A stretch of 64,000 nucleotides of DNA from assembly GCA_035352955.1 (NCBI GenBank), contig DAOPYQ010000008.1, positions 9,701-73,700 of the forward strand, given 5' to 3'. Origin of the DNA: Candidatus Omnitrophota bacterium (GTDB lineage Bacteria > Omnitrophota > Omnitrophia > Omnitrophales > Aquincolibacteriaceae). Positions 22,024 to 64,000 of this stretch are shown piece after piece. The notes below the pieces were generated by a model. That model did not search any database. It worked only from the letters and a program-made list of their open reading frames with translations, and was not told where the DNA came from. The translations under genes and the position numbers were made by a program. The number at the start of each line of letters is the position of its first letter. Within the stretch, counting starts at the first letter, position 1.

Positions 22024-22087
22024 TAAAATGCGTCTCTCTTGGTTGCCGGCAATGCACGCTGGCCGTAAAACGTGTTAAAGATGGGAA

Positions 22088-22095
22088 ATTCTACA
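22088..22095 (-). promoter_or_regulatory. Possible extended -10 promoter (TGTAGAAT) for the histidine kinase
   Basis: The minus strand reads ggTGtAGAATttc ~95 nt upstream of the kinase ATG. The -35 is weak. Hand-identified only. Confidence 0.25.
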
Positions 22096-22174
22096 CCTTC
22101 CAATGCCTTTTCGACGAACCTTTTTACAACTTCGTCTATTCCGCCCACGCTCCTCCGGTAGGGACGCGGGATCC

Positions 22175-23029: not shown

Positions 23030-23164
23030 TCGATCGCCTTTTGTTAATTTTGAAACTCGAAACAGCTATCGAATAACGCAAAATCCGCATCGAGGGTTAC
23101 TGGAAAATTTGAATTTAAGATTTATTTCGGGCTTCGCTTCTCGGAGTTTGAGGTTTGAATTTTG

Positions 23165-41491: not shown

Positions 41492-42703
41492 TCACGAAGG
41501 TACGATCTTTGCAAATTTCCGCTTGCCGCATTGAAGAATGATGGCTTCCCCGACCGTGATCACAGCCTTGGGGTCCGTAACTTTCTCCCCGCCTATCTTA
41601 ACGCCACCTTGCTCTACCATCCGGCGGCCTTCGGACTTGCTCGCAACCAGCTGCGCCTCCGCAAGAAGGCTTACAATATCGATCGTCGGGTGGGCGATCT
41701 TTACGACCGGCACTTCATCAGGCAGCCCTTTGTTCTTAAAGATCTCGTCGAATTCCTCGCGCGCCCGTTTCCCCTCTTTTTCGGAGTGGAAGAGCGTCAC
41801 GATCCGTTCCGCGAGACGCGCCTTCATCTCGCGCGGGTGCATCTCACCGGACTTTAACCCCGCGAGGATCCCGTCCACCTCGTTTTTGGGCATCGCCGCG
41901 AGATAGCGGTAATAGCGTTCCATCATGGCGTCCGAGACCGACATGACCTTCCCGAACATTTCTTTGGGGGTATCCTTGACTGCAATATGATTGCCGAGGC
42001 TTTTGGACATCTTCTGGACGCCGTCGAGTCCTTCGATGAGCGGCATCGTCATCACGACCTGCGGCTCCTGACCGTCCGCCTTCTGCAGTTCGCGCCCCAC
42101 GAGCAGATTGAACATCTGGTCCGTCCCTCCGAGTTCGATATCGGAACGGAGCACCACGGAATCGTGCCCCTGAAGCAACGGATAAAGGAACTCCACAAGA
42201 GCGATCGGTTCTCCGGACTTGTAGCGCTTTGAAAAATCATCCCGTTCGAGAATCCGCGCAACGGTATACTGCGCCGTCAACCTCAGAAAATCTTCCGGCG
42301 TCATTTTCCCGAGCCATTTGGAATTAAAATAGACTTCGGTCTTTTTCTTGTCCAGGATCCGGAACACCTGGTCTTGGTACGTCTTGGCATTTTCCAGGAC
42401 TTGCTCTTCCGTCAGCATGGGCCGGGTCTCGGATTTTCCGGAAGGATCGCCGATACGCGCCGTAAAATCCCCGATAATGAAAACAACGTCATGCCCCAGG
42501 TCCTGCAACTGGCGTAATTTGCGGAGAGGCACGGTATGCCCGAGATGAAGATCCGGCGCCGACGGGTCCGCGCCGTACTTGATACGAAGAGGGCGGTTTT
42601 TCTTGATCGAAACCTCGAGCTTTTGGGCAAGCTCCTTTTCGGAGATAAGATCCACGAGGTTCTCTCTGAAAACTTCAAGCTGATCCTGGACGGACGGAAA
42701 CAC
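41492..42703 (-). CDS. tyrS: Tyrosyl-tRNA synthetase TyrS
   Basis: HLGH motif (PDLHLGHTVPL). KMSKS. C-terminal S4-like domain. GTG start at 42703 with GGGGAGGG SD. In-frame stop three codons upstream. Confidence 0.95.
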   Translation of the reverse strand: MFPSVQDQLEVFRENLVDLISEKELAQKLEVSIKKNRPLRIKYGADPSAPDLHLGHTVPLRKLRQLQDLGHDVVFIIGDFTARIGDPSGKSETRPMLTEEQVLENAKTYQDQVFRILDKKKTEVYFNSKWLGKMTPEDFLRLTAQYTVARILERDDFSKRYKSGEPIALVEFLYPLLQGHDSVVLRSDIELGGTDQMFNLLVGRELQKADGQEPQVVMTMPLIEGLDGVQKMSKSLGNHIAVKDTPKEMFGKVMSVSDAMMERYYRYLAAMPKNEVDGILAGLKSGEMHPREMKARLAERIVTLFHSEKEGKRAREEFDEIFKNKGLPDEVPVVKIAHPTIDIVSLLAEAQLVASKSEGRRMVEQGGVKIGGEKVTDPKAVITVGEAIILQCGKRKFAKIVPS

Positions 42704-42831
42704 TGCTATCTACCCTCCCCTCAATAGGTTACAAATCAGGGAAACATTTTAGCAATGAAGGTGGGGAATGGAAAGGACTTAGTAAAGGCGTCAGACACCC
42801 TTTTGAAAAAGGAGGAGAAAAAAGCAGTTCC

Positions 42832-45800
42832 TTACGCAGCTCGCGCGACGAGCTTCATCTCGACGAACTGCTGGGCCAGCTTGGCGATCTGGCTGATGAT
42901 GAACCCGTTGGTGCCGTTCGCCCGGACTTCCGGCAAATTCTCAGCGACAAAGTTCTTCAAAAGATCCCCTCGCATTTGCGCATCGGGAATGCTGGCGATC
43001 AGATCCGCCAGGGATTTGAGCGGCATGGCCAGAGCACTTGCAACCGCAAGATCCTCGGCACCGATCTTCTCACCGAACGCGAAATGCGCGCCGTCCGCAA
43101 GTCCGGCCATTTGTGCCGCAGTAAGGTGCAACGTCGTGATCCCGCCCCGGGTCGACGCGCCAAGTCTGTTAAGGACCGCCGCTTCCGTTGTTTCCCCGGC
43201 CCGCATCGGCTCCACCCGAAGGATGCTTTGTTTCTCAAGGGCCTCAAGAACTTTCCCGAGCGATCCAAGCTCTGAGGCTGGCACGACGTCTTTACTCTGG
43301 ATTTTTTTACGGATCTCCGAAATAAGCGCAGGCGATCCGACCGTCACAAGCGATGTCTGACCGTCTTCCGTCATAAACATTTTGAGAAGGTAATAAAGAG
43401 CCGTAGGATTCTGCGACAAATACTCCGTCATAAGGTCCTGACCAATCGCCAAAGTCCCGCGCGGATTCTTGACCGTCTGAACTGAACTGTCGGTAACGGT
43501 CAGCGCCCCCACAGACACGGGCCGGGAAATATACAACGGCTCCTCCCCCGGGATCAAACTATGGAGCACCGAACTATAGGCCGTATCATCCGCCGCGTAG
43601 CCGACCGGAATTCCCACAAGTTCCTGAAGCGTCCTCACGATCGCTTCCTTGCCGCCCAATTCATCAAGCTCCTCGATAAGGCGCGAAGGAATAATATTGA
43701 AATAGTAGTAGCGGATAAGCTCGAGCCGCTCGACCGTCATGAGTTCCCGGATCGTTGTGGCCGGAAGGATCGATGTGCGGACTTCGTTCCGGGACGGCCC
43801 TTTCGCGGGAACGCTACCAACTGTGCCAGAAAAACCGGGCGAAGGCAGGCGGATGGACGCCGGAGAAGAACTCGTAGCGACCTCTTTGATTACCGCTCTG
43901 GTCGCGGCAACCGGAATCGCAACCGTCTGAGGAACCTCCGCTTGAATACCTTCCGTCTGAGAAACTTTCGAACGCCTTTCGGAGCGTTTTCCAAGAAATA
44001 TCTGAAAGTGAGCGTCCGCCTTTTCGAAAAGTTTAACGTTCGCGGGAAGATTGGGAGCGCGCTTCCCTGCAGAGGCTTCCTCGTTTTCCAGGATCCAGTG
44101 CCTCAGGGCCATCAGCAGCTGCTTGTGGAGGGCCGGATCCGTCGCCCGTATCCGGGAAAGCAACGAAGGCGTAATCGACACCCCGTCCAGGGAAGCAATA
44201 AATTTGGTTTCATCTGCGGGTATCGAAAATCCTCTGGAACCCTTCGTGACAGCCTCGCCCGTCAGGGGTTGCATTTCACGCCACGCAACCTCTTCGCTGA
44301 GAACTTCCTCTAAAGGTTTCAGAGCCTGAACTTCCCCGGCTTTTAACAACTTCGCCCGCCTGCTATCCACCGAATGAATCAACCCGAAGCCCAAGGTCAT
44401 AGTGATCAAGACAACGGAAAGCGCCGCCATCAGACTGAGAAACGCGAACGACGCTACGGCAGTCACGATCATTCCGCCCGTCACCCACGTAAGAACTTTA
44501 AAGAACTGCTGCTCTTTCGACAACTGTTGGACCTTATCAAGGATATCCCTAAGGTTCCCTGTCTTTTTATCGTTGGTATTTTGTTCTCCAACCTTTTTAC
44601 CCACAAGATGCGGAAACTCGGCGGCGAGCATACCCCAAACCCGGCTGGCGTCAGCATACTCTTGGGTCCCTCTGGGGTAATGGGCTGCGATCATCTTTAA
44701 AACATACTCCATCGGATGGTCCTGGGAGTAGATTGCATGGCTATTCTGGTCACCGCCCTTTTTATTCGTCTTGGGCGCCGAAAGAGCAGGCGCGTTTTCC
44801 AATTTCTTCGCAGCGGCCGCAGCACGCTCTCTGTCCTGAGCTTTTTCGACCGCAAGCTTATAAGCGCCATCCGCTTGACGGATCTCCGCCTTGATCGCAG
44901 GATCCTTCACCGCCAATTCCTCGGCCAAAGCCTTGGGGTCCCTTATCACTTCGGCAAGAGTCGCGGGCCGAATCTCGCCATATTTATCTTTGTCCGCTTT
45001 GTTCTGAACGGCTCTTACGGAATATCCTCCGGGCGCTGTGTAAACCACTTCAATGTTCACGTCCCGGCCGTCGATCTTTCTGATAACGGTGGCCAGGACA
45101 ACCGGCTGGCTGGGCACTTTAGGAGAGGCCATTGAATCGTCCGGCAAGAAGCTGCCATTTTGCACCTGCCCCGTTTCTTTTTTGAGCTTGGCCGCCGCCT
45201 GAAGCCGCTTAACTTCCAAGTGACCGCTGAACCACTTTTGAACCTCGCTTATCACCCCGGGCATTTCTTCCGGAGTCGGCTCAGGCTGCGTTTTGAAGGT
45301 AAAAAGAGGTTCGGTCGGATTTTTCGGATCGAAATAAACAATAACCCCAAAACTGTTTTTCCCCCTGGTCACAAGCTTGTTCCCTATCAGAACCGGTTCT
45401 TTGGAAACAACCGCCGCGACGGGAGACATAGCATGGCTAGCGGATGCCGCAGGGGTCATCGGAGATATTGCCGCCGGCGCTCCCACCACAACCGTTGGGA
45501 CAGCGCTTTGGGGTTTTTGCCCGACCAGCTTTGTCCGTTTGAAATTCTCCGCCGCAGCTTCAAGATCCTGGGAAGTTTCGACAATCTCAAGCCTGTCATC
45601 ATCCGTCACACCTTTGACAAACCAACGGTCCTTAATCGAAGGATCCTGAGCCGGATCAAAAAGGACAACGTATCTCCGTCCTTGGAACTTAAATATGCCG
45701 AAAAGGATCCGCCCCTTGTAATCTACCGTCCCGTCTATGCCATAGCCATCAACACCTCGGTCATCTTGCCACGCCTCATTCGGGTTGCCGATAACCTGCG

Positions 45801-48800
45801 GCGGCGTTCCTTCAATGATCGCCAGAGGAATCTTATGTGAAATTCTGTAGCGAGCTCCGTCCGAACGCCGCTCGGCACGAAGCACTGAGGCTTCGGGAAT
45901 CCTGCGCTGACGTCCACGGGCTTCGACCCCGGCGATCGCCATCTCGATATCTCCCGTAACGTTCGCGGCCATCTGTCTCCTGGAACGCTCCAGCTGACGC
46001 GTCATCGCAGCATCCGCTTCAGCTGCCGCAAGATCCGGATCTTCCGCCACATTCGCGACAAACTCGCGAGCCCGAAGCATCGCAAGCTGACGCTCGAAAG
46101 CAACGTCCACTTCCTGCGCTGCGGCGGCGGAATCTCCAGCCACGTCCGCGATCCAGAGATCATCCCCAACGCGCCGTTCCTTCCTCGCGGTCGAAACAAT
46201 AAATTTTTCCGCAGCAGCGCTCAGAGGCTGCTCCTTACCGCCCACTGTCATAACCCAGGGGGATTCCCCGCGATCAAATGCGCCATAATCAAAAAGCACG
46301 ACCGTCGATCCGTTCGTTCCAGGCAGGGATGCAAAAACGATCCGGTTCCCGGAATCTCTCTGGACCGGTCCGGAAACCACCACGGTCGTACCGCTAAGAG
46401 CAATCACCGCTCCAGTCGGAGATTGGTACCGGATCACCGCTCCTTCGTCCCGCTTCTCCGCACGCAACCGCACATCACCCCGGGGAGCACGAACGGCTTT
46501 CTGGAAAAGAGCCGGTGCGAGAGCTTGGGATGCTCCGAGGCTGAGAAGTTCGTGAAAAGCCAGTCGATCGCCCGTCGTCTTAACGCCTGTGATCAGAGTA
46601 GAGGCGCCTTCCGACCCGATCGCAACAGCCAGCGCCGCCCATCCGGGATTAAGCACGGATCCGTTTTGAACGTGAAGGCCCTGAATCCTGTTAATCGCCT
46701 GATCCAGCACCGCAGTATAAAATGCCGCCTGTTCCTTATAAACCGGGGTCCCGGCCTCAGGATCCTCAAACCGGTTGGTCTCGACATCTTTTCGTGCCAC
46801 CCGGAGCAAATTCAATGCCGCAGAACGAAGCTGTTCCGCAGCAAGTATCGTATCCTTCTCGAGCGCCATCAAATGTTCCACGAGGATCTCCACATGGCCG
46901 GAAAATGGGTGTTCCACTTCCCTATGGATGATCAAAAGACCGATATCCCGCCTTATCCCGTTGATGTCCGCGATCGCCTGCGCACGGCTCACCGCTTCCG
47001 CCGTACTCCGGAGTTCTTTGCGATGTTGTGAACTGTTGCTGGCGAGCGCTATTTGCAAAATACCCGCAGGGCCGGAAAGAACTGGGAGATGTCCGGCCAC
47101 GGATACCGTCTGAGCCTGCGGGTGGAACGACTTCTCCTCTTTCTTCGCACCTTTACCGGCTTGAAGATCAACCGATTCCTTCCCTTCGTCAATAGGAAGA
47201 GTGACCGATGTCGAACCACGACGTTCCGCGCGGATGATCCAGCCACCTTTCCCGTCCATGATCTGTTCCAGCTGATAGGTCAAAAAGTTAAAACCTTTAT
47301 CATCCTCACGGTTTCCCTCCGTATTTTCATCCGAAGGATCTTTGATCCCTTCGATGCGTTTCGTATACCAGGGCGCGAAACCATTCAAGTCACCATCATT
47401 GGTAACTCTCCCTTTCAGGGCTTCCTCAACGTAACGGTTAATGAAAAATTTCATCTGCTGGGTACTTCCGGTAGCGGAGATCATCTCAAATCCTGCTTCA
47501 TCCAGCGAAACGCCGTAAGCATCCCTAAGCTCCCGCAAAAGCCCTTGAGCCCACGCCCGTTTCGCCTTGTCCGTCGTATTCCTCGAAACATTCCGCAGCT
47601 CCGTCACAACGATCGCACGCGCCGCGACATCCAAATTCTCAAGCTGATTTTTTTCGATATATTGGGACTCGACCGCCCGCACAAGCTCGTTGGTTTCCGA
47701 GTCCCCGCTCGAAGCAAGCGCTTTCACGAGAATATCGCAACTATCCGCATAATGGGACTGCGCCAGCACATTTTTTGCGGCCGCCGGGAACGCCCCGAGA
47801 TTCAGGTTCGAGATCCTCTTCAGATCGGCCAGGGCTTCGGCCGGCTCGGGCTTCTTGTCACTGCGCGTCCAGGCTGTCCGTTCGAAATAACCAAGCCGGG
47901 TCCCCTTTCGGATCTCGTCTTCAAGAGAACTGAAAATACCGGCCTTTGCCTTCGCGGCCCCCCCCAGAAACGCTGCCGCCCAAATCCCTTTCAAAGAAAA
48001 CTCACGCCGTGTCATATCACCGCTCCGGATCTCCGCGCGATGCGAGGTTTCGCCCCCGGCACTCCGGGTCTTTTTCCCTGGACCCTGTAGAGAGGATTTT
48101 CCGGAACGGTCGGCCTCCTTCCGTTTTTCTTCCAAGATATGCCGGGCGTGAGAATAAACGGCAAACACAAAGATCGCCACACCGGCCACTGCAGCCGCGG
48201 GGAACAGCCATTGTCCGGCGTTCGTAATGGAAGATGACGCGTCCGCAAGGACCGGAAGTCCTTCAGTCCATTCGGAAGAACGACGCTCTTGGCGAGAAAC
48301 CTTGTTTGTCGCCGGTGCTTCCGTAGCCTGGGCCGAAATCCCGAACCCCCGCGCGGAAACCACCTCGGCGGTAAAAAACGCCGCAACCCCCAACATCAGT
48401 GCGAGCGTTATGGCATTCGAGGCACGCCGCTCCGCCCTCGGACCAACGTGCGTCTCTCCGTATTTGGGCTCCAGATTCACGACCAGCATTCTGCGGGCCT
48501 CGGTCACATCGTAAAAAATACCGTTCTCCCCGAGTCCGAGGATTCTGGAAAATTTCCTGGCCGGTTCGCTCTGCCCCGCGATCCGCTTGATCGCGGCCAT
48601 ATCATGAGCGGCCAATCCCTGAAGGATCGCGTTGTAAAGGGCTTCATAATTCGAATCTCCCGCAACGCGGTCGGCGGCAGTTGAAAAATTTACGGTTTCC
48701 ACCTCTCCGGGACCGAACGTTTTCTGTCCCGTAAGGTCGAAAACCTTTGCCACCGCGGATTTTTCAGAAAGTTTTGAGAGCATGTAAAGAAGACGGATCA

Positions 48801-51800
48801 GGCTCCGGGGATCGCGGGATTTGATCTTGCGGAAATTAAAGATCGCATTCTTGAAGTTCACGGTTCTCATAAAATCCACGAAGGACTCGAAATCGCCCTG
48901 TGCACTGATGTTTTGAAGTTCTTTAAAAACTTCCGACAACTCGATTTCACGCTGGTTGGCAACCTCCGCCGCCCGTTTTTGTTCGAGAAGGCGATCTTGC
49001 TTGTCCCCCAGATCTTTTTCCAGGCGCTGTTTTTCCCGCTGTTTCTCGGGGATCCCCGCCCGTCCGCCGTTCTCTCTCAGAGAGTTCACTTGAGCAGTAA
49101 CACTGTGGATCGCCTGAACATCCGCCGCGATCTCTTCCTGGAGCCGGTTATGATCCGCCGTCAGGGCCTGGACCTTTTCCTGTGCCTGCTGAACCTTTTT
49201 TTCCGCGACTTCCAGCAGCCCCTTCTTTTCGTAAGGTTCCCAAGCTCGCGCGATCTCAAATGCCTGTTTTCCTTCCCCGAGAAATCCTTCGAAAAGCCGC
49301 ACGGCCGGCCAGCTGCCTTCGATGTGGGCGAAAGAACTGAATTTTGAGAGATCCTGGAGAAAAGCAAAATTTCTGATATGTGCATCTGTGGCGACGCTCG
49401 CGAACCGCGACAGAACATACGTGGCCGCCTGCAGCGCGGCGATCTTGAAATACCGGTTGCGTTCGCTGAGCTTCCGGTTCCCGAATTCAAAAACCGGCAC
49501 GCCGTCCACGGTCTTGATCGCGATATCAAGCCCGAAATCCTTCAGAGCCATCCGGATCTCTTCAAAAGGTCGCTGCGTCAGTGTGATGATCGCCCCAAAG
49601 GAAAAGGCATCGCTCCCAAAGATCTCCTCGATCGGTTCTTTGCTGAACGGGGCAACCCCCGAGGGAGCGGTAAAATTGATACGATGAATATCGGGTTTGC
49701 CCGCGGTCTCACGGGCCTTCAACACGGCCAGGCTTACGAAGAAAAGGAGCCGCACGAGGGTCTCGGCATTTAAGGACTGCAGAAAGAAAATACTGTAATC
49801 GAGCGTGCTGGCTTCTTCGGGATTATTGAAGAAATCGTAGAATTTCTGATACTCCGCCGGATACTCCCGCTGCAGCGCATCGATCGCTTGCTTGGCCTCA
49901 TCAAAGGTCGCCTTGGAAATATGGGACTGCCCGTTAGAAGCGAACTTGCGGATCCGGTGCCAAAAGAAACCCTGGTTGAACCGGTTCAGGAAATCGTCTT
50001 CCTGAAAGACCCTCAGGAAAAATTCGAGTTTCTCCCGGGACATCGCCTCACCCTCGCGCGTCGCCAGTACATCGAGGGAATTAAGCAGTGCCAACGTCCG
50101 GAGATACTGTCTTTCCTTGCCGAAAGGCGCCGGATAGTTCCCGTAAAAAAGATTCTGGGTGCTGCGTTCGCCAAATTCGATCGTGCCGAGATCCACATGG
50201 AACCGGATGAGCCAGAGCACTTCTTCCACTTCTTCGGACGAATATCCCATCGTCTGCAAAATTGCGGCTTCCGCGATAAGCCCCGCCCCGATATCCTCAT
50301 GGTTGCCGGCGCCGAGCCCGATCCCGATGTCATGAAAAAATACCGTCAGATAAAAAAGGTTCCGCCGTTTGGCGACCTTCGCCGCGTCTCCGTCGGTCCC
50401 GTAGCGGATGATCTCCTGAAACGCCTTGCGGTAAAGATCGAACTGCGCCTGGTTGAATTTGATCCCCTTCTTGAGCTTGTTAAACGTATCGAGGTCCCCT
50501 TTTTCGATCAGATCGAGGAATTCGATCAGTTCGAGCGTGTGCTGGCTCACCGTCTTGTTGGGATATTTCTTGAAAATATCCCGGTCTTTCCGTGAATCCG
50601 TTCCGCTCTCAACGCGCGGGAACCATTCGAACATGGTTTTGGTCTTTAAAAGTTCTTCCAGACGGGCCCGGATACTGAGTCCCTGCGGTTTCGTCGGGGC
50701 CAACGCCTCGTCAAGCAACGGCGGCAGACGGACGCCCTTAAGATCGGCGTGGTCCTTGTTCACGAGCGGAACCTCGACCCAATCGCCCCACCGCGGATGC
50801 TTCGCCCCGGACTTCGCCTTCGCCGGACCGGCCACGGCGTTCTTGTCCTGAAGGTGGGCCTGGACCTCCTGCCACCGTTCGCGCATCGAATCGATCGAGC
50901 GCCGCAACCATGTAGGCGAACCTTCTCCGAAGTGCAACGTGGAAAAATTCCTCTGGAGCGTCACAAGGCTGTAGATGAGGTCCCGCTCTTCATCTTCTTT
51001 GAAAATGTCGAGCGTTTGCAAAAGCTGCGGGATGATGAGCCAGGAATCGGTCGCCTCGTCGTTGAGGAAGATCCTGGCATAATGCTGGAGAAATGCCGTA
51101 AGCCAGAGGATCTTCTTGAGCGGTTGGGTCTTCTTGTCCGTGTAATCGTTACTCTCGACGATATGGTAGGCCTTATCCAGTTTGTCAACGGCGTCAGCAT
51201 CCAGAGGAGCTTCCTGCCCTCTTCTTTGGTCAAAGAACGCCTTCAGTCCGCCTTCGGAGGTCCGCCGGTGCGCTTCGAGCAGACTCAGGATGTCGTAAGT
51301 GGTCCTCAGCTGATCGTAACGCGAAGAGGTGATCACCAGCGCTTCGGGAATATAGACCAGTTCGCGGATCAAGGTAACGTCGTTCAAGGCCTTCCAGAAT
51401 TCGTCGAGATTCGCACCCGGACTCTCCAGGATCCCCTTAAAAGTCGCCTTTTTGTCAGCCGGAATATTCTGGTGGAACAGGTTGACCGCATCGGTCAGCT
51501 TCCCCCTCAGGTTCCGTTTCCGTTCGGGATCGGTCGTCGAAAATTCGATGCCTTTGAAATAAGCGTGTGTGGCGTTCCGGTAATCGCCGAGCTCCCGGTA
51601 ATGGTCCCCGAGTTTCTCGAAAAGGTCCAGAAACTCTTTTCCGTTGATCTCGGGGATCTGCGCTTTTCCGAAAAGTTTCGCGACATAAGACTTCACCACA
51701 TGCATCGCGCCTTCCGGATCCAAATAGTTTTTCCGGTATTCTCCGAGCAAATTCCGGATCGCCGGAGAAAATCCGTCCCGTTTTTCCATCGCCGGAAGGA

Positions 51801-54800
51801 ACCGATCCAGAACGTTCTGGAACGGGGAAACCGCCTGAACGCCCGGGTTCTCAACATCCTGGACGATCAGATAATCCAGCACATTCATCAGCAGGAAAAC
51901 CTGTTCCGTCAGGAACATTTCTTCGGTCGTGGCTCCCGCGGCAACTTCTCTCGAGGCGAGAAAAGCCTGGATCGATTCCTGGTAAAGAAGCGCCTCAACG
52001 AAAAGGACTGCGGCTTCCGTCGTCTTCTCGTCAAGTCCCTCTGTCCCAAAGACCGACTCGGACAACCGGACACGCTTGCCGGCGGGATCGTAATCTCCCA
52101 TGACCCAGAGGGTCCTGCCTCCGTTGCTGAATTCGCTCACCATCGGAATGTTCCGCGCAAACTCGATAGCGCGGACCGCTCCGGCCGCAGAATAAGCTTC
52201 TTTGACCAAACCGTTCTGGGAAACAAGGCGGGAGAATGCCGTCTCGAAGATCTTCCGTTTCTTTGCTTTTTCATCGTCATCGCCGGAAAAACCCACTTGC
52301 GCAAGTTCTTGTTCGAGTGTCCCGCCCGTCGATATCTCGCCGATCTTCTGGGATTGATAATCCTGAGAAGGTGAAAGGACGCCGTCAAGCGCCCACGGCA
52401 GGCTCACGGGCAAAGGCTTCGCAACCCCGGCGACGCTTCTCCGTTCCGCACGGCTGCTGTCATCGAAAGTCCCCGCGATATCACTCCGGGCGCCCAGATC
52501 GGCATCCAGGATGTCTGAGACCGTACCGTCCGTCCCGACCAGAACCGTTCCGTCAAAAGCGACCGGCCGGCGATCCGACATTTTCCGCGTTCCGTGCCGT
52601 TTCGCGATCCTCGCGCCAAAATCGGCATTAACATCCGCCGCCGGCACGACAACTTCCCCGGTCACCCGGGTTGTCTTTCCGGCTGCCAAAAGAGATTTCC
52701 GCGAAGCGATCCTTTTTTCCACATTCCTGAGATCGCGCCGGAGATCCATAAGATTAAAAGCCTGCACCGAACTCGGAAGATTGTCCCCCAAAAGTTTCAT
52801 CTTGGCCGCGATCCTGGCCTCAAGCGCCGCACGTTTGTCTTCCATCTGCGCAAGCTCCGCATCCAAAGCGCCGGCGCCCGCCGCAGAGGCTGCAACCTCG
52901 GCCCTCCGCTCGGCACGACGGTCGAGAAAAGTTGCCCATGGAATGTCATACAAGGGTTTTACTTTCAGGGTCACGGTGCCTTCGTATTTTCCGGAAACGG
53001 GCTGTTTAACAGGATCGACCCGGACAACGTTGATCTCAACAGAAACGTCCTCGTATTGTCCTGCGCCAACACCGCGTTTCCCCACCGAAATGATTTTCGT
53101 TTCGCCTTCCTCAAGCGTCAGATTGTTGTTCTCTTTTTTATCCTGTTGCTCTCCGAGGATCCGGATCTGGGCCTTCGCAGGAGTTCCCGGAAAAGTTTCC
53201 ACGAGAAAAGCCGAAAAACCATTCCCAATGCCTTCCGAATGCTGCGGCCTTTGCGCATTAAGCGTCACTTCAAAAGGTGCAACTCTACGGGGAGCGTAAT
53301 GTTGCACATATTCCCACAACAGGGAATCATAGTTGCCTTTCAGAAGAGAAACATCCCAACCTTTGACCCCCTTCAAAAGACCTTCGATATGTCGAAGAAC
53401 ACTCAGAGTGAACCCCTCGTCCTTATGCCGAAGAATACTCTGCGTAAAACCAACATCCCTATCCGGGGATTCCTCCTGCCGGATCGCGGCGTCGATCAGG
53501 GGAGTCAGCAACGGTTTTAGAAAAGGCAGTTCGTAGGGCATATACGTATTGATGGCGTGCTTGGCGTTTTTCCAGGTCGCAAACACCGCTTCGGTCTCAG
53601 AAACGCGCTGCCATTTCCATCGGCGAAGCACTTCCTGCACAGTCTCCTCTTCGCCCAACGCAAGACTGCTCAGCATGTCGCGCATGAGTCGCAGGTCATA
53701 CGCCGTCAGGGCCCAATTTCCGGCAAGAAGGATGTCGGGAGAACTGTAAGCCATGACCGGAAATGCTTGGCCCCCCATCGCCTTGACGAGCCCAAGGATG
53801 CGGTCCCCGAGAGCATCGTATCCATGGACCACAAGGATCTCGTTGGGAGCCAGCTGCAAAACTTCACCGTTCGTGCCATTCTCAAGACGGGTCGTGATCT
53901 TGTGCCCTTGAAGCGCACGGGACACATCTTCCACCGTTTGATAATCCAGATCCAGGATATTGGCGTTAATCCCCCGCTCACGAAGTTTTGCGAGAATGAG
54001 ATTGCCCAGTTCCGGCTTTCCGGAAGCACGCGGCCCGCCGATCAGGATCACACTACCCCGCTCTTCCGGAAGCTCGTCAATAGCTTCTTCGACGAGCGCG
54101 TCAAGTTTTTGTTGCATGGCCCGATCCGCTCGTCGGATCAGCTCAAGCCTCTTTTCCGTAGAGTCGACCTCGTTAAGCTCCGCCAAAGTCTCCGGCCGCC
54201 AACGCTTCGCTCCGGTATCCATAACATAAGAAGGATGCGCTTCATCAAAAGGAGCCGCAAGGTCCGGATCCGCCGCAAGCATCGCGTCCACGATCCGGCT
54301 GATGGCGATCTGATAGGCCGCCTCGCGAAGCGTGATCTTTTGAGACTCCGAAACCCGCGAAATATCATAGAATGCGCTCACCACCTTATCTTCCATAAGG
54401 CCATTCCCGGCAACCTCAGGCCAAAGCTCCCCGATATTGTTCTGCCTCCATTCTAAAGAGGAAAAAGCCACCCCGCCGTCGTTGGTGGCCACATCGGGAA
54501 GAATGATGGCGCCTTTGTCGAGAAGGATCTGTTCGGATCCGTCATTTTCAAGAGGGCCGTTCGCGCCCTCGGAAATGATCTTGGCACGAATAAGCTTGGC
54601 GATATCTTTGTTAACGGTTTTTTCCTTCGCCGCAAGCGCCAGGACCGTGACGTCGCTTGCCCAGAAATCTTCTATAGATTCCACGCGAGCGTCCTCAGGA
54701 TGCGCTTTCGCATACGTCAGGATTGTGTTCTTTTTCGACGTCCCGTCCGCGTTCCTCTCGGCCAAATGCTTGTCGAGCGCGTTGAGATCGAGTCCCGTAT

Positions 54801-57800
54801 CCTTCACGGCGGCCACAGCGACGGACTGGCCATCCACGAATTCCTTGATGGCCATGACGTGCGCTCCGTTATCATAAAAGCTTCGAGCCGCATAACTGCC
54901 GACATTCCCGTAAGCTTCCACGGCGATTCTCTGACCCGCAACACCGGCGCCGATCCCGAGACGTTCCCCGTAGATCTTCAGCGCTTCTCGCGTCACATAG
55001 TAGAGGCCCAGACCCGTCGCCGGAGTGCGCCCCGCGGCGCCGCCCTTGCCTTCTGGTTTTGCGGTCACGGTGGCCACAGGAGAGCCTTCACTCCTGTCGA
55101 TATGCCGCTGGCCATAATAATGTTTCATATAGTATTCGAGATAAGGGAGGGCAGTCTCATCCTCCTCCGCAAGCGCAGCGCGGAATGCATCGTTATCGAA
55201 AAGCTCCGGATTCTTGATCTTCAGGAACTCATCAGCAAACCATCCCATTTCTCGGGAAGTCGTTCCGACGTCGCCGGCCGGCACATCCGAAAGAGGCCCG
55301 AAGGCGTTAGGATCCTGCTTTAAACATTCCGCCACATACCCGCGCATCAACCGCGCCAATTCCTTGACGGAGAGTTCTTTGGGATTGATCGCCACGCCGC
55401 CTTTACCGCCACCATAGGGAAGCCCCGCGATCGCATTTTTGACGCTCATTTCCGTCGCAAGGGCTTTGATCATAGATTCGTTCACCCCAAGGGCGAAGCG
55501 GATACCGCCTTTGTAAGGCCCTCGGTAGGGCGCATGACCGATGCGGTACCCATCAATGTATTGCGTCTCTCCGCCTTCATCCAGAGTCAGGGGGATCCTG
55601 ACACGAATGACTTTCGTGAACTGTAACAACTTCTCAAGGATCCTTGGATCAAGCCGGATCTGCTCGGCCACTTTTCGGATCTGCGCCTGCGCATTCCTCA
55701 GGAAACCTTCCCCCTTCTCTCCAGCTTCCGTCTTGAGCTTCACACCCTCCGGATCTGTCTCCATATAACGAATCTTCTTCCACCGCTCAGCAATCTTCGC
55801 AGTAGTTTCCGACGCTCCAGCTCCCGCATCCTTCCGCAATTCCGAACGACGGACAGTCGCATCAAGCGGCCCAGCGGCAGCCGAACGCGCCACAAAATCA
55901 GCGGCAGTGATCGTCAGAGTCTTCAGATTGCAATTCTTGGCAAGCATGATCTCGACGCGAGTCAAAGGCAGTGCGGGATCGATCGCATCAAGAGGGATAT
56001 CGAACCCCCGGGTCGTTGCGGTCACCGGATACATGTAAGTGCCAAGGACCCTTTCACGGGAACCTTTCAGCCCATAAACAAGAACCTGAATGTTTGCCGC
56101 CTGCCCCTCCTGAGAAAGTTCTGGCGCCAGAGTTGTCAAACGAAGCGATGCCGCTTCCGAAGCGGGTTTATTGGGAGTCAGAGCCCACAGAGCGCTCCCG
56201 GCCTTTTTGGCATCGTTGCGCTGGATCAAGACCGTTCCGTTCGTCACAATCACCGAAACAGCCTCCAGAGAGGTCCACCCCGCCGTAAAATCAAACGGAT
56301 CCACCGGCGTCAGCGCTACCCGGTGAAAGCGTAAAGGCTCCGTCAGCATAGCGGAATCCGTAAAAGAAATGGTGTTCGTCTGCCCCGGCACGATCGTCAT
56401 TTCGTCGCTCGTTACCGGCGTCCGTTCCCCTGTCAGTGCATTTGATCCCAAGACGAACGCAACCGCTTTAAAAGACGCGGCATTGGTCCCTGAAACAACA
56501 AATCCGATCGTTCCGGTCCCGCTCACCCGACCCGGGTCGTAGCTCGTGGTACGAACCACCAAGTCTTCCGCAAAAGAGAGAAAAGCCGACATAAAAAGAG
56601 CCGTAAACGCAATCCCCCTCGCGGCGTTCGAGCGCGGCGTAAGATTGCTCAGCCGCTTCTCGGCGCGAGACGCTTTTTGCTCCAGTAACGCTAACACGTC
56701 CGCGTAGAGAGCCGGCTGTCGATCCTTAAGAAAGATCTGCTCCTTGCCATGACTGCGCGAGATTCGAAGGCCTTCCAATCCCACGATGGCCTCGAAGTAA
56801 ATGTCATGGTAAGGCATACGATAAACCGTGTAGTGATGAGCCAAAGTGGGAAGAGATTGGATCGCTACATCTCCGGACCGAAGATAGATCGCGTACTCCT
56901 GTAGCGTCAGATCCATACCAAGTTTCAACCTCGGCACGATTTCTTTTAGCCTTATAGCATTCAACGCCGGGGTCACAGCCGCGACGACCCGCGCAAAAAC
57001 ACCGCTAAAGCCGGATTTGCCGGAAGCGGGCGTTTCTTTTAATGCCGGAAGCCGGACAGGCTTGTGTTGGAGCGAAACCGACAGCGCCGCCGCGTCAATG
57101 GCGCCCGCAATCGTGTTCCCGCGCCTGGCGATCGACGTACCGATCACGCGATTCACCGCCAAGGCCTCTTCCAAGGTCAGAACGGCATAAAACTTCTCTG
57201 CAACCTTCGGCGCCTCCGTCAAATTCGAGGCCCGGAACACCCTGGCGACGTTACGCACTTCGTCTGCCGTAAAGGTCTCGGCTGAACCCTTTCGCGCAAG
57301 CACTCCGTTAAAAATATCCGCGAGCGACTGATACTGGCTCGCGGTCAACGCATCCTGCTCCGTCGCACCCGTCTCACGCAATTCCGCGCGCCAGGCGCTA
57401 ACAAGAGCGCTCACGAACATATCGCGATGCCAGGACTGGCCCAGCACCCATTCGACCTCTTGTAATTCTTCAAAACTCATCATCCCCGCCCAGGCGAGGA
57501 AATCAAACCGAAGGTTCGCGCCTTCCTCTTCAGTCTTGCCCGGAAGAAGTTTCTTGAGCAATTCACTCTGGAGACCGTAGCCTGCGCGGCCAAAGATCTC
57601 GTTGGCGACAAAAAGACCGGCCCCTTTTTCAAAATCGATCCCGACCTGGGGATCATAATTAGAATCGCCCTTCTTGAACCAGGGCGGACTCGTCACGCCA
57701 CCGCGGGGCTCGCGGATCGGCTGATCCGCGCGGTTGATATCGACGCCGCTCCCAATACGAGCCTTTTCATCTCGAGCCGAGGCGGACGCATTCTTCCTGT

Positions 57801-60800
57801 CATCATTGTCGTTACGCTGGGGCATGATGGCGAACACGATCACAAGCGCTCCGGCGGCCCGGTAGGCCGAAATCAGCTTTCGGTCAAGAAGCAATCTTTG
57901 TTCCTCTGTCACACTCGTTCCCTTCGCCGATCCCAAATATGCGATTGCGAAAAGACCGCGCGCCGCCGTGCCATAGTCCGAGATCGTCTTAATGGAAGGA
58001 CATTCGATATCGTTCGGAAGAATAAGGCAGGAGAACTTCGCCCCCGGTTTCATGAAGACGCCGCGCATGAACTCGAGCGCGTCATCCATCACCATCGGCG
58101 TCGTGTCCCCCGCCGCGAGCGCTTTTTGATAAGCCTTTTGCGTTTTCAGATAATTTTCATAATTTTTCTTAAGCGCTGTCTGCTCGCCTTCAGGAAGCGC
58201 TTCAAAGATCTTCCTCATGTTCTCCGTGGTTTCGTCAGCCTTCATGGCGATGGCGAGCGCCTTGCCGAGATGACGGTCGAGAACGTTCCCAAAATCATCT
58301 CCCTCTTCGCGTTCCGCGAAAGGATCCACGTCCCTCTTGTAATCAAAAACCTTGTCTTGGTTCTCCGGACCGATCCCCTTCAGTTCGATCCCCAGCTGGT
58401 TGTGAAGCTTGGCAATAATCCCTTCAGTCGTATTCCCATCGCCGTTGATCATCTTGACGTAGCGCTCGGCCTTCTCCCGTCTGGAATCACGCAGCATTTT
58501 CTGAAGCGCGGGATCCCGAAGCTGAGCGATTGAATGGACCAGGACATAGATGGTTTTAGCTCCGGGGTAATTGATCTCTTTGCCCTCCAACGGCGTTCCC
58601 TTGGAATTAACCTGGATCTCGAAACCAACCGTAGCTTTGATGCCAAACTTCTTCGCGGCCGCGAGGAACCGCTCCGCTCCGGCCAACGTGTAATGATCGA
58701 TAAGGCCTACCGTCTGAAGCCCGGCGCGCCAGGCGCGGTAAACGATCTCTTCGGGATAGAAGGGGCTGTAAGAATCCTTGCCGTGAACGTGGTTGTTGCT
58801 TTCAAGTGAAAGCGGCGCACGGCGGATCTTGCCCGCTTTCGCAAGCGCGACGATCTTGTCAACCGCGGCTTCGCGGGTAGCCTGGCTACGGCTCTTCAGA
58901 TCGTTTTCGAGGAAAAGAAGTTCATTTTCGGAGGCGATGTCGTTCCCCATTTGATTGAGCGTGGGGTGGTCACTGCCGCGCAGGTCCGCGGCAAGTTTTT
59001 CATAAATGCGCGGGGGAATGAACTGCAGCACATACGGCAGATAAAGCTGGCGGAAGAGCGCGAGCGCGGCATTCGGGTTCTCTGCCGCTGCCTTGGCAAG
59101 GATCTCCGTCTTAAAATATTCCATTGCGCCTTCAAAATCGCGGTTGCGGTCGTTCTCGACTTTTCCGATATTGCTGTAAAAACTGAGCAGTTTCTCGAAC
59201 CGTTTCGACCGGTATTCCGGATGCGTCGTATCGAACGCGAGCCTGAGGAGCGCCATCGTCCGGCGTAATTCAAAAGGGTTTGTCTTAAGGTCGATGGTTT
59301 CCTGGGCAATCCCGCTTTTTTCGATATCAAACCGGGCGACTTCGTCACCGGGGCGGGCCCCATAAAGAACGACCTGTATCGTTTCCTCGCCGGCGCGGGA
59401 GACTTTCTCGATCACGGCGCGCACAGCCAGTTTGTCGTCCGCCAGCTTCACCGGGTCGCGAAAGCTTACGGAATACGACTTGCTTCCCCACCCCATGCTT
59501 TTTACATCGTGGACCGTGTCTGGCCTGAGACTATCCGTCAACTGATCAAAATAATCGTAGGTAAGGCCGCGCTCCTGCATGATCTCCGGCACCGACGCAG
59601 TCGAGGCTTCAAGCGCCTCCACAGCCTTTTGATATTCTCCCTTCTGCACCAGATTCCGGAATTTCTCTTCACTGCGAACTTCCGCGCGGAAATCTCTGGC
59701 TGAAGCTCTTGGAAGGGCTAATCCCCTGTCAGAGGCCTGAGGCACCAACAGCAAAGTACCGTCCTTCGGTTCGACCACAAAGATCGTGCGGGAAGATGTT
59801 TGATAAGGCCGGAACCCGCCGGGCCCGGACGTTGTGAACATTTCAAGCCGGTTCTTCCGGACACGCGCGGAAACAAAAGTAAGCGGAGCCGACGGATAAC
59901 CGGTCAGCATCGCCAAAGACACTTCTTTTGAACCGGCCAAACGCTCGAGCAATTTGACCCCCTGCTCAAAAGTCAGCCGCTTATTTTCGGACGGAGGATT
60001 CACGACCCGTGTCGCGACAATCTCCCGCAATTCCGCACGAGAGCCCAATATGTTCGCAAGCGCGGCTTTCGGGCTCTCCCCGCGCAGTAACTCGGCAGCG
60101 ATCGCAGAGACGACAAACGGGCCCTCGGCGATCAAGTCTTCACCGAAAAGACCCCAGAAAGCATTGGGAGACAATTCCCTGATCGTTTGTTTATGACCAT
60201 CCGAAATGACGGCGATGGAAGGAAAAGGCCGCGTCGGTGGTTGAGACGGATCCACAAGCAATGACATCTGCAGACTTACCACAAAATCCTGAACCCGTTG
60301 GGCCGCCATAGCCACCAGCGCCCCTTGGGACGCCTCCAGCATCACTGCCACAAACCCTGTGAATTCCCCTTTTTTCTCGAGGATGTCAAGAACCTGGCCC
60401 ATCGTAACCACGTCGGCTTCCATGATTTGACCGGCTTTTGCATTCGGCTTCCGGGATTTCCCTTCCCTCCGTTCGGCCCTTTCACTCTCGCCCCATGCCG
60501 CGGCTCGCTCCTCGGGAGATTGAGCCTGGAAACGCCGCCACTCTTCGCGCTCCGCTTCGGGACCGGTCAATTGCGATCCGTCTTGCAAGGAACGGGATGC
60601 GGTTTTCCGCCCAAAGTCTTCAACATACCGGACGCCTGCCGCCTGAAGCAACTGCGCGACTTCAATTCCGACCGGCCCTGCCAGTTCCACATCGGGACCC
60701 ATCAGTTGATCGAGGCGCACCGCATCGAAAAACGCCCCGCCCCGGAGCTCGGCACGGACAGTTTGGGCCTTCTCCTGATGTCCGCGGATCGCGGCGTCGA

Positions 60801-63800
60801 TCAACTGGATACCGCCGCCCTGATCAATAGCCTTGCCCAACTCTTCGGGAGCGGGTAAGAAGAAATACTTTCTTTCCGCAAGAAGTTCTTCGTAGGCTTG
60901 TTTGGCAACCTTGAAACGATCATCCCCGGGCTTTATCACGCCAGGGACCTTCGCCCGGACACTCTCATAATAAAGCCCGCGAACGACCATCAGCTCGTTC
61001 TCTAACATCTGCTCTATCATGGACTTCACGGCGGTTCCCGCCGAAACATCGAGGCTTGAACGCTTCTCTTTCCGGGATTCCTCGGATCTCATGTCTCTTT
61101 CCGGAGCAGATACCCTCGCCGTCGCCGATACGTTTTCTGCCGGAAGAAGATACGGCAAGAGCCTGGGAGTAAAAATCAATGCGCCGCCGAGGGCTGCCCC
61201 TACGGCAAAAGTGATCCATCCCAAATAAGCCGCGCCCGTAAGAATGGCCACGGCTCCGCCCGCGTTCGGCGCGATAAGCGCAACAAGATAAAGGCCCGAA
61301 AGCCTGAAAGGCTTCGCAATCCCCGCCAACGATTGGGCATTGACCTCGGGGAAGAAAAACTTCATGGCTTTCCAAATCGGGACAAGCACTGCAGCAAGCG
61401 CCGCCAAAAAACCGATGTGCGCAATCGCCGCGATCAATTCCCAAACGCCGGAAAGCTTGTCCGCCACGACTTGTCCCACGGAGCGGTCCGCCGCCTTTTC
61501 AACAGACCCCGGTACGGTGATGCTTTCCCGCTTCTCGGCGCGGAATGCCGCAAACAGCTTGGCGCTCTTCTCCTCCGCGGTAAGTTTGTTCGCTTTTTTG
61601 TCACTGGAAGGGTCTTCAGTGACCCGGCCATCCTCATAAACGGTAACTCTTTTCTTCTCGCTCGACACCACAAGTTTCCCCGGTTTTGAGGTATCGATCC
61701 GGAACGCGCCGTAAATCGTAGGCTTGTTAACCGGCGTCACATCAATGACAGAAATATCGCTGCCAACGTCCGCAAAGGACAAAGCAGCGTTCTCGCCATA
61801 CGGTTTGCACATTTGCCGGAACTGCTCAATAAATTTTGTCACAAATGCGGGCGTCGGGACCCGGACAAGCAGCGGACGAACTTCCGGACCCTGTTCCCGG
61901 AATGCCGCGACGTCGGCGCTCTTCCACTCCATTTCCCCCGTTTCCACTTTCGCGGATGTAACGCGGATGATCAACTTCTGAGCACCGGCCTTCGACCGGA
62001 CATCGAAAATGGTAAAACCCGGAAAAATACCATGACCGTAATAGGCATCACTAAACTTTCTTGAGAAATCGGCACGCATTTCTTCGAATTTCTTTTCTTG
62101 CGTTTTCTCAAGCCAATACGAATACGCCCTCATATGCAGCGCGTCAAAAAATTGGCCGTAGTTGCGGTGTCCGGTCAGCATCGTCTTGAGCTTCAGATAG
62201 AATGCCCCGGTCGGACCTTCCTTGTCGTAAACGGACCAAAGGGCCGAGAGGATCTCATCTGGATAGAGCTCAGCCAGGCCCATCCGGCGGGTCATATCCG
62301 CCATGATCGCTTGCTCATCCCGCAATTCCGCGCGCCAGGCCCCATACGGGGATCCGTCATAACCGGTCTGGCGGCTATTGTCATCTGCATCAGACGCATT
62401 GGACGCTTCCTCGGCCGCCCTTGCCGCCTCGGCAGCGAGCTGGTTATCAAAAGACTGCAGAGCTTCGCTCGACCGGGGATCCCCGATCTTCCGCAATTCA
62501 GCCGCGATCATTTTTCTGAACGCAGGGGAATTTTTTTGATTCTTCAGCCTTGCGACTAATTCAGGCACACTCTCAGCCCCGCGAAATTCCACCAGCGCAG
62601 GAACCGCGGCCATACGGACATACTCGAAAGAAGAATCCAGCCCCTCCGCAAGCTCGGCCCACGCGCCCAAGTCTTTCAATAAGTCAGCGGTGGCCTCGCA
62701 AACACGGTAGTCCGGATACTTCAAATTGTTCCGGAGCCGGGGGATCACAGATTCCGGTGATCGTTTAAATTCAGGCAGCAAGTCCTGCAACAAGTGGGTC
62801 ACCGCGATTCGCACGCGGCCGGCATCATCATTTAAGGCCGCCGTCAGTTCAGGAATGGCCCGGCTTCCGTCACGCTCGCGAAGTGCCCAAAATGCCGCAG
62901 CCCGAAGATCTTCATAGGGAGATTTTTTTTGTCCGGCAAGAATATCCCACTGCTTTTTCTGAAAAAGTGCGGGCACCGCGATTTCCCGAACCCGTTCCTC
63001 ATCATTGACCAGTGCCAGGCTGAGCCCATGCAAATCATTGAGTTCTTTGATGCCCTCTACCGCAGCTCTCCGGGCTTGCAGGCTATCATCGGCTAAAGCG
63101 CCTTCCAGGAGAGGCAGGGCTTTGGCTCCCTCCGTTTTAACAAGTATCCGGAGGATCTTCTCACGGATCATTTCCGCTTTCAGGCCCATTTTGGATGGCT
63201 TCCAGATCTTCATCAGTCGGGGTCCCACGGAACTTCCGATCTCGATCAATCGGGCGGCAGCCTCGCTCGAATATTCCCAATAACCGAGTCTGCGGATATT
63301 CCATTGAACAGGATCTACGATCCTCAATGCCAAATAAAAAATCCACCTCATTGTTTTGACAAAAACGGTGATGACCGATGTGGCGACAAGCGCCAGAATG
63401 CCTGCCATCACGGCAAGGGTGAAGATTCCGCTAAAACCCCAGACCCCGAAAAACGTCACCGCCGTCATACTGCCAATAAAAATCTTGCCGAGCGAACGAT
63501 CCCACATATATTGATCCCAAAGCTTAACCAAAACAGGCGCTTCCTTCCGCTTCTCGGCGCGAGGAAAGAAAAAACCTTTTTCCGGAGCAGCAGGTTTGAC
63601 GTCGGCCAGAACCCAAACTCGCAAATCAGGCTTTGTGAAAGAGATCGCGTAAAGAACGACCGCCGACGGATCCGCTTTTGCCCGGGCAAGAGCTGTTTCG
63701 GATTGGATCGGCCCCCCGTCTTTGACGCTTAAAATGAATTCTTCGGGCGTCCGATGGTTCAGTGAAGTTTGAATGGCCTGAAGGCCGGTCGCATAACGCC

Positions 63801-64000: not shown

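Follow-up and report, generated by a model that had tools for sequence, protein, structure and literature searches.

Recurrent R-[S/A]-E-x-R pentapeptides punctuate a giant Omnitrophota protein and are candidate sites of polyprotein-like processing

Does a bacterial gene of more than 20 kb deliver one enormous chain or a set of separate products? The question is raised by a 64,000-nucleotide stretch of a Candidatus Omnitrophota genome (contig DAOPYQ010000008.1 of GCA_035352955.1; hereafter the window), in which a single giant open reading frame (ORF) on the minus strand runs from position 42832 to the window edge. It is undecided in the field whether the giant proteins of this phylum act as single chains or as cut products, and no cut sites have been located; West-Roberts et al. 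(2023, bioRxiv 10.1101/2023.11.21.568195) suspect cleavage of Omnitrophota giants and state that information on the cleavage points is absent. Here we describe a pentapeptide motif, R-[S/A]-E-x-R, which recurs between the modules of the giant protein and of its relatives and offers candidate sites. We judge this punctuation to be more interesting than the size of the gene. It had gone unseen in an earlier annotation made from the letters of the window alone (the sequence-only reading).

Translation of the minus-strand frame up to base 64000 gives 7,055 sense codons with a terminal stop only, in agreement with the sequence-only reading, which had described a single ORF of at least 7,055 codons that is still open at the window edge. 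The ORF list had called 42832..63924 (-), 7,030 amino acids (aa) from a GTG; the GTG at 63924 is not the true start of the gene. In the source contig and in other assemblies the ORF has a length of 7,823 codons (23.5 kb). Frame translation and the full-length copies place residues 769-7823 of the 7,823 aa and the stop codon at 42832..64000 (-); the window is without the 768 N-terminal residues, the start codon lying ~2,304 nt past its edge. The gene is called at 7,823 aa on contig CAYPJP010000007.1 (137.9 kb) of GCA_964411105.1 and has the same length in the Logan assembly of SRR4236661. The NCBI copy of the full protein (HNX69154.1, P0003, Candidatus Omnitrophota bacterium) bears the product name ‘Glu/Leu/Phe/Val dehydrogenase dimerization domain-containing protein [Candidatus Omnitrophota bacterium]’. 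A copy on a JGI/IMG contig (P0002) also has 7,823 aa and differs from the NCBI copy by the single substitution F5658L (window ~49330), which points to a second, slightly different strain with an intact ORF. Stops or frameshifts, which the earlier annotation had asked to be looked for, occur in none of the NCBI, Logan and JGI copies. The DNA is 100% identical in the three assemblies that overlap the window; they represent the same strain, assembled independently, and are only partly independent evidence.

At 55% GC, the chance of a stop-free frame of 7,055 codons is ~1e-122. This and the reality of enzyme domains lying thousands of codons apart uphold the earlier argument that the ORF is no accident of high GC content. 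The GC content at codon positions 1, 2 and 3 (0.61/0.42/0.62) is coding-like, and base composition is uniform across the window, the giant gene having the same composition as its neighbours. Because 7,055 codons are free of stops and the same 7,823-aa product was obtained from three sources, we take the ORF to be one real gene. It is genuine and lies in the chromosome of an Omnitrophota bacterium: the lineage, which the sequence-only reading had suggested correctly, follows from the NCBI organism names of HNX69154.1 and HPS37570.1 and from the closest tyrS loci, which all belong to Omnitrophota metagenome-assembled genomes (75-84% identical). The same reading had called proteins of this size extremely rare. 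Within the phylum this is not so, since ORFs of more than 20 kb are reported from most Omnitrophota genomes by Seymour et al. (2023, PMC10066038). The present gene, with more than 20 kb in an Omnitrophota genome, belongs with these ORFs; among giant ORFs it is a new, smaller representative of a kind already known, and its size is ordinary for the lineage.

What sets the protein apart is its punctuation. RxExR occurs 25 times in the giant protein against 2.7 copies expected from shuffled sequences, with local shuffling in agreement, and RAExR 17 times against 0.32 expected. The arginines and the glutamate are strictly invariant, with no lysine in place of arginine and no aspartate in place of glutamate. 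The codons, by contrast with the peptide, vary from copy to copy (CGC/CGT/CGG/AGG, GCC/GCG, GAA/GAG), and we therefore conclude that selection acts on the peptide. The 35 other ORFs of the window contain one RAExR in 13,398 aa. No copy lies within a Pfam domain or a transmembrane segment of the giant protein; the copies are found in polar stretches (P=0.0005) and flank the HEAT, transmembrane, PHP, glutamate dehydrogenase (GDH) and HD modules described below. An AlphaFold2 model of residues 3440-4520 places RSELR-3486 in a linker with a predicted local distance difference test (pLDDT) score <50, ahead of the confidently folded GDH.

The motif scan placed RAEKR at residues 915 (63547..63561), 1588 (61528..61542), 3213 (56653..56667) and 6614 (46450..46464), all coordinates of the giant gene here and below being on the minus strand. 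RAELR is found at residues 1324 (62320..62334), 1850 (60742..60756), 2089 (60025..60039) and 2972 (57376..57390), RAEVR at 2206 (59674..59688) and RAEIR at 6089 (48025..48039). RAERR occurs at residue 1942, close to REEWR at 1919, which is possibly a chance match (60466..60549 for the two), and again at 4463 (52903..52917), 4618 (52438..52452), 5956 (48424..48438), 6358 (47218..47232) and 6809 (45865..45879). Serine-type copies are RSELR at 3486 (55834..55848), ~40 aa before the GDH fold, and RSERR at 7440 (43972..43986). The sequences RKEKR at 1744 (61060..61074), RQERR at 6004 (48280..48294), RKELR at 6428 (47008..47022) and RKERR at 6707 (46171..46185) are motif-like.

Relatives were found in a genome collection with tyrS as synteny anchor. 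Related Omnitrophota, whose tyrS is 75-84% identical, carry very long open frames upstream of tyrS as well, the outcome of a synteny check that the sequence-only reading had proposed. These frames are almost unalignable to the giant protein, yet they are rich in R-S-E-x-R (12 copies against 0.8 expected in L004, eight in L007). An exhaustive search of representative sequences with residues 1321-2520 returned only four other proteins, and no relatives turned up when genomes were scanned with the first 300 aa of the window fragment, a stretch that is not conserved. Three of the four, P0127, P0128 and P0129 (5.6-5.8 thousand amino acids, kaa), contain 24, 19 and 16 copies of R[AS]ExR against 0.2-0.4 expected; pooled as a control, 120 ordinary GDHs contain one motif against 1.0 expected. 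We further fetched 41 metagenome loci with an alignment of homologues of the N-terminal domain. Their giant ORFs (92,983 aa) hold 245 R[AS]ExR against 5.9 expected, whereas the control ORFs of the same loci (68,903 aa) hold three against 3.1 expected and show no enrichment. A logo from 309 copies reads [S/A/P]-R-[S/A]-E-[V/A/L..]-R-[S/A/T], and positions more than 2 residues to either side carry no information; the median spacing of copies in the family is 185 aa.

The positions of the copies are as informative as their number. Motif copies coincide with the starts or ends of homology blocks between family members: the common C-terminal module begins at RNEVR in the giant protein, at RAEIR in L006 and at RSESR in L010; residue 2971 is the last of the PHP block and 2972 the first of a motif copy, as are 686 and 687 in P0127; and a homology block of P0126 begins at its RSEAR-794, the equivalent position to RAELR-2089 at the start of a common module. 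In four independent members (L097, L087, L104 and L106) enzyme domains are bracketed by the motif at 14-60 aa, with no copy inside a Pfam domain (domains found in the relatives include DHQ synthase, epimerase, 2-Hacid_dh and a 6PGL-like domain, in some also HEAT). Every predicted module boundary carries [S/A/P]-R-[S/A]-E-x-R-[S/A/T]. The R-[A/S]-E-x-R punctuation, family-wide and always between recognised domains, appears to be new.

Within a protein, the copies evolve in concert. The identity of the variable fourth position between copies of one protein is 0.48, compared to 0.23 in shuffles (maximum 0.27), and single proteins can be nearly uniform: 16/16 copies are RAEVR in L087, 8/8 are RSExR in L086 and 19/24 are RSELR in P0127. 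The variant switches wholesale between fairly close relatives, as L087 and L086 have N-terminal domains that are 57% identical.

Members of the family share both ends and differ in between. They start with a Sec-type signal peptide with an A-x-A-like site, as read from the alignment, followed by a conserved N-terminal domain of ~560 aa that is present in all members and lies outside the window in the giant protein; the first motif copy comes after this domain. Its nine homologues are all Omnitrophota fragments without Pfam annotation. The alignment shows the invariant pattern AHG...(31 aa)...VEG...RDxxM...GGFH. An AlphaFold2 model has a core with pLDDT >80, and in this model a parallel beta-sheet flanked by helices forms a TIKI fold, so that the domain is predicted to have the EreA/ChaN/TraB/TIKI hydrolase fold with a conserved His...Glu...His set. 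The spacing of AHG and VEG resembles that of the His-Glu pair known from this superfamily (His85 and Glu113 of Bcr135), and the first Glu of the 2His-2Glu motif appears to be Gln. From the other members of this superfamily (the TIKI Wnt protease, RRSP, erythromycin esterases, PrgY/TraB and ChaN) the domain differs by a helical insertion of ~300 aa, and no Pfam model reaches threshold. Some alignment columns, for example K vs N/G, are candidates for following the A or S type of the motif; with 19 sequences of common ancestry this is not evidence. By eye, loops of the domain (residues ~330 and ~590) carry a protein-specific repeat, SVIRHP twice in the giant protein and YGVRST...TPYAFRRT three times in P0126 and P0137.

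At the other end, complete members close with a conserved module or tail, in which an amphipathic helix is followed by small-small-Ala-COOH. In the giant protein this C-terminal module spans residues 7505-7823, from RNEVR to the tail ...KLVARAA-COOH (42835..43791), and its counterpart forms the extreme C-terminus of L006, L010, L102, L103 and L107. The endings (window 42835-42880 (-) and L086, L088, L102, L105, L107, L108, L114, L115 and P0127-P0129) read ARAA, ARSA, QVAA, EISA, EVMA, LTAA, SVAA and LHSA; such tails resemble C-terminal recognition tags (ssrA-like LAA) or a secretion signal. The middle is an unrelated, variable string of modules shuffled between species. Orthologues at the same slot (L086, L102, L115 and others) are complete at ~1.6-3.0 kaa and reach 7.8 kaa here, so the gene has expanded or contracted several-fold between related species with both ends kept. 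In L085 (12052-12054, TGA) and L091 (11548-11550, TAA) a single in-frame stop is followed by 894 and 819 open codons, respectively, with motif copies, which could reflect sequencing error, recent pseudogenisation, a naturally split gene or read-through.

Cysteine is avoided throughout the family. It makes up 0.08% of 85,024 aa of giant ORFs compared to 1.02% in neighbouring genes, a 13-fold depletion, and the giant protein has seven cysteines in 7,823 aa. The avoidance includes modules resembling cytoplasmic NAD(P)- or ATP-dependent enzymes, a hint that a far larger part of the chain may be exported than one would guess from its enzymes.

We then characterized the modules between the motif copies by tiling the protein with Pfam and NCBIfam models. 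The sequence-only reading had picked out six features in the frame, three of which proved to be genuine domains. HEAT repeats form a module at residues ~1015-1300 (62404..63261; HEAT_2, E=3e-20). The PHP-like motif belongs to a module at residues 2369-2971 (57391..59199; Pfam PHP at 2505-2598, E=4e-8) that is homologous to residues 136-686 of P0127 and 2663-3215 of P0129. The GGGKGG motif is part of a complete GDH-type module with both domains at residues 3534-4010 (54274..55704), for which Pfam, PDB, an alignment and the AlphaFold2 model agree: ELFV_dehydrog_N scores 136.6 bits (E=5e-40, cut-off 25.3), ELFV_dehydrog 148.2 bits (E=4e-43, cut-off 23.4), and the match to solved GDHs in PDB has E=2e-66. 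Aligned with seven GDHs, the module keeps the substrate and catalytic residues of KGG.RF, GGGKGG, NPK and DVPA.D as well as EGANGP and GGV..S..EW; its Rossmann glycine motif is AYGNVG in place of GFGNVG. It is ~35% identical to any free-standing GDH, has an insertion of 39 aa between its two domains and contains one cysteine. The module looks intact, and hexamer formation and activity are predicted. The remaining three features fared less well. The Walker-A-like motif corresponds to a weak match to a P-loop nucleoside/nucleotide kinase (residues 4063-4121, 53941..54117; NCBIfam E=4.5e-4), FHDIG to a sub-threshold HD-domain-like segment (residues 5309-5381, 50161..50379; Pfam E=0.01, and a GlnD-type match of 1e-8 that is far below cut-off), and the coiled coil, probable at residues ~5677-5792 (48928..49275), is supported indirectly by weak LXG/HBL/PspA matches. 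A PDB sequence search with the C-terminal 3,555 aa gave no matches, and the sole PHROGs match was a weak one to PHP/DNA-polymerase, with no phage link. BLASTP found no internal repeats in the giant protein, and an adhesin-type repeat protein was rejected for this reason.

A Kyte-Doolittle scan marks about ten strongly hydrophobic segments. Pairs of probably two transmembrane helices each lie at residues 947-1000 (63304..63465) and 7270-7313 (44365..44496), and a cluster of three to four, in a module common to P0128, at residues 1617-1715 (61159..61455). A signal-peptide-like segment follows directly after RAEKR-3213 (56554..56625), and three hydrophobic or signal-like segments, each after a motif copy, lie at residues 5961-5985, 6029-6057 and, as a Tat-like (twin-arginine) TRREFSLKGIWAAAFLGGAAKAKA, 6098-6125 (47929..48423). 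The last of these is a near-canonical twin-arginine signal, M-TRREFSLKGIWAAAFLGGAAKAKA, inside the chain (window 47929-48012 (-)), nine residues past RAEIR-6089. Tat signals normally function at the N-terminus only. We considered motif copies as n-regions of internal signal peptides and rejected this, as there are a few striking cases, including the Tat-like TRREFSLK, and no statistical enrichment.

The locus itself has a conserved order: aro genes, rpsA, lpxA on the opposite strand, the giant gene, tyrS and an ABC transporter. The position directly upstream of tyrS in a housekeeping neighbourhood, stated in the sequence-only reading, was confirmed; tyrS (41492..42703 (-)), the conserved downstream neighbour identified by ORF and homology, follows after 128 nt. 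This gap (42704-42831) shows no terminator-like site on the coding strand and one weak promoter-like match (42774-42746), and co-transcription of the two genes is possible. No dedicated protease or transporter is conserved beside the giant gene, the flanking genes being housekeeping genes. The window as a whole contains chromosomal housekeeping genes (dnaE, guaA, guaB, lpxD, folE, menaquinone genes, ileS, proC and tyrS), and Rfam and tRNA scans of it gave no matches. Among its other genes, an Rce1-like intramembrane protease of the CPBP family (15111-16022 (-)) is not a conserved neighbour, and we found no link to the giant gene. A menaquinone/prenyl-quinone run (16584-24748 (-)) includes a UbiE-type methyltransferase, a radical-SAM MqnC/CofH-like protein, VitK2_biosynth, UbiA and UbiD; it is interrupted by a PAS histidine kinase and suggests the futalosine route. 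ORFs of 350 and 386 aa (94-1146 (+) and 11981-13141 (-)) have no Pfam match, and the longer one overlaps an oppositely oriented lpxD-like gene and is unlikely to be a gene itself.

What, then, are the pentapeptides for? We favour processing at the motif copies in the manner of a polyprotein, with the TIKI-like domain as candidate endopeptidase, and put the probability of this at about 45%. The preference arises because a strict consensus sits at every module boundary, is not found in ordinary genes and varies in concert within each protein, and because a domain of hydrolase fold is present in the same chain. The giant protein would be made as one precursor composed of signal peptide, N-terminal domain, shuffled modules and C-terminal module, in which the motif copies would serve as recognition and cleavage sites. 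As happens with viral polyproteins and MARTX toxins, the precursor would be cut into single-domain products: membrane-anchored pieces, pieces with signal-like N-termini of their own and soluble enzymes that need to oligomerise, such as a hexameric GDH. The self-encoded N-terminal TIKI-like domain would be the prime candidate for the site-specific endopeptidase.

Several points weigh against processing. The main difficulty is one of location: the candidate protease should be periplasmic, and many of the flanked modules look cytoplasmic (NAD(P)- or ATP-dependent), so that some sites would be out of reach for a single periplasmic protease if the chain were not exported as a whole. Some members of the EreA/ChaN/TraB/TIKI superfamily are esterases or heme binders and not proteases. 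The N-terminal domain stays below Pfam cut-offs, with best E-values of 0.026 (DUF5694) and 0.047 (Cofac_haem_bdg/ChaN); a PDB profile search with it gave no match, and Foldseek gave nothing significant. A hydrophobic stretch follows the motif in 14 copies compared to 9.6 ± 3.0 expected, and exposure of signal peptides by cleavage is thus unsupported. The AlphaFold2 model of residues 3440-4520 includes a second motif copy, but alignment depth is lacking there and the context of this copy is uninformative. The motif statistics cover this family only. Finally, the data show the gene, its family, the counts, positions and concerted evolution of the motif and the fold of the N-terminal domain; cleavage at the copies and the enzyme responsible are inferred. 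This speaks for an uncleaved protein as well.

Such a protein would be a membrane-anchored multi-enzyme scaffold of ~850 kDa, a surface ‘coat’ as proposed for V. archaeovorus, in which the motif acts as docking peptide or linker cap, bound for example by HEAT modules or a partner protein. HEAT repeats, which are protein-binding scaffolds, occur in the giant protein and in relatives, transmembrane segments are many, the literature favours surface-coat and adhesion roles, and homogenisation of the motif within a protein would equally be expected for a single binding partner. However, a docking motif need not mark every module boundary, bracket enzymes at 14-60 aa and match the ends of homology blocks; HEAT modules are absent from some sampled members (L097), and enzymes of the GDH type work as hexamers, which is hard to fit with tethering in an 850-kDa membrane protein. 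We therefore regard the scaffold as rather unlikely. More doubtful still is a non-proteolytic signal carried by each module, either a modification site on Arg/Glu or a tag by which an export or insertion machinery would recognise the modules and pass them one after another through the membrane. The cysteine depletion, typical of proteins that are exported unfolded or live outside the cytoplasm, would suit such a tag, as would the family signal peptide, the internal signal-like segments right after motif copies and the strict invariance of the motif Arg and Glu. Yet position 2 alternates between Ser and Ala and is no obligatory phospho-acceptor, no export ATPase, SecA-like domain or modifying enzyme was found in the protein or conserved beside the gene, and hydrophobic segments are not enriched after the motif.

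Two further explanations are less likely again. The motif could be a by-product at the DNA level without function in the protein, such as a dispersed nucleotide repeat, a recombination hotspot for shuffling or a mutational bias. Modules are indeed shuffled between species and homology blocks break at the motif, as a recombination signal could bring about, but amino acids alone are conserved while codons differ from copy to copy, the amino-acid rules are strict (no R->K, no E->D) and neighbouring genes of the same genomes are not enriched. We consider this explanation very improbable and rejected the motif as a DNA repeat on its codon variability. It is scarcely conceivable that the ORF itself is an artefact or a dead gene, whether an assembly chimera or a decaying pseudogene kept open by chance in a GC-rich genome. 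The sources are all metagenome assemblies, three of them of the same strain, and two relatives (L085, L091) have single in-frame stops; set against this are a probability of ~1e-122 that the frame is open by chance, one and the same 7,823-aa product in NCBI, Logan and JGI assemblies (one with a single substitution), the conservation of N- and C-terminal modules, motif and synteny across dozens of species, the intact GDH catalytic residues and a base composition equal to that of the neighbouring genes.

Comparison with known systems places the gene among the Omnitrophota giants and its putative processing closer to viruses and toxins. ‘Archaeovorins’ unite HEAT repeats with numerous transmembrane helices and a multitude of divergent enzymes (West-Roberts et al. 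2023), and a catalogue of 5,761 proteins of at least 10 kaa defines a class of ‘multi-enzyme metabolic clusters’ (bioRxiv 10.64898/2026.06.07.730766). As described there, these giants share with the present protein the signal peptide, many transmembrane helices, HEAT scaffolding, unrelated and very divergent metabolic-enzyme domains on one chain, poor conservation and suspected processing. At 7,823 aa, the protein lies below the thresholds of both groups (genes >90 kb or >30,000 aa for Archaeovorins, ≥10,000 aa for multi-enzyme clusters). Of the Archaeovorin features it has HEAT repeats, numerous transmembrane helices and, after the signal peptide, an N-terminal region with no recognisable domain; their SecA-DEAD/preprotein-binding domains and the C39/S8 peptidase near the N-terminus have no Pfam match in it. 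Of the features of multi-enzyme clusters it has many Pfam families with none dominating by copy number and HEAT-type scaffolding (HEAT, PHP, ELFV_N, ELFV, weak P-loop and HD). Tiling with Pfam/NCBIfam detected no glycosyltransferase, NUDIX, SAM-methylase, C39/S8 peptidase, SecA-DEAD or dockerin domain. The searchable text of the papers on Omnitrophota giants does not mention the motif punctuation, the TIKI-like N-terminal domain, the C-terminal module, the cysteine avoidance or the rpsA-lpxA-giant-tyrS slot; an earlier mention elsewhere is possible.

MARTX toxins of Vibrio and relatives are likewise very large, shuffle effector modules between strains and free them at inter-module linkers by an in-chain protease domain, and their effector RRSP has the same TIKI fold as that modelled for the N-terminal domain here. 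They differ in that the giant protein has no RTX repeats, no cysteine protease domain by Pfam/NCBIfam and no type I secretion system genes nearby; its candidate protease is N-terminal and TIKI-like, its site would be a strict pentapeptide instead of the Leu-X site of MARTX, and its modules are enzymes of housekeeping type and not known toxins. In viral polyproteins (potyvirus NIa, picornavirus 3C, coronavirus Mpro), one ORF carries many copies of one short consensus between mature units, the consensus matches the specificity of an in-chain protease and the sites co-vary with lineage. Many copies between units and co-variation as a set with lineage are what we found for the pentapeptide. Unlike the viral cases, the gene is cellular and sits in the chromosome at a conserved housekeeping locus, the fold of the candidate protease is of another class, the chain is interspersed with transmembrane segments and a signal peptide, and cleavage would still be a prediction. 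The GDH module, for its part, has both Pfam domains and the full substrate and catalytic residue set of hexameric S-GDH; unlike free-standing GDHs, it lies within a giant protein, 3,500 residues from the start.

Giant genes make up a large share of the small Omnitrophota genomes and are thought to underlie a predatory or parasitic lifestyle. A family-wide pentapeptide predicts product boundaries, so that structures can be predicted module by module; it also names a candidate protease and provides a sequence signature for finding related systems in metagenomes, and the 13-fold avoidance of cysteine in cytoplasmic-looking enzymes is an independent clue to where the products reside. More tentatively than processing as such, we propose that the giant genes of Omnitrophota may be cellular self-processing polyproteins, cut at R-[S/A]-E-x-R by their own exported TIKI-like endopeptidase, whose specificity would co-evolve with the sites. 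If this is true, each species would obtain its own shuffled assortment of cysteine-free enzymes and membrane pieces from a single ORF. The motif would then provide bacterial giant proteins with their first cleavage-site code, and their expression would be the bacterial parallel to that of viral polyproteins. The products would possibly equip the cell surface, or a host or prey cell.

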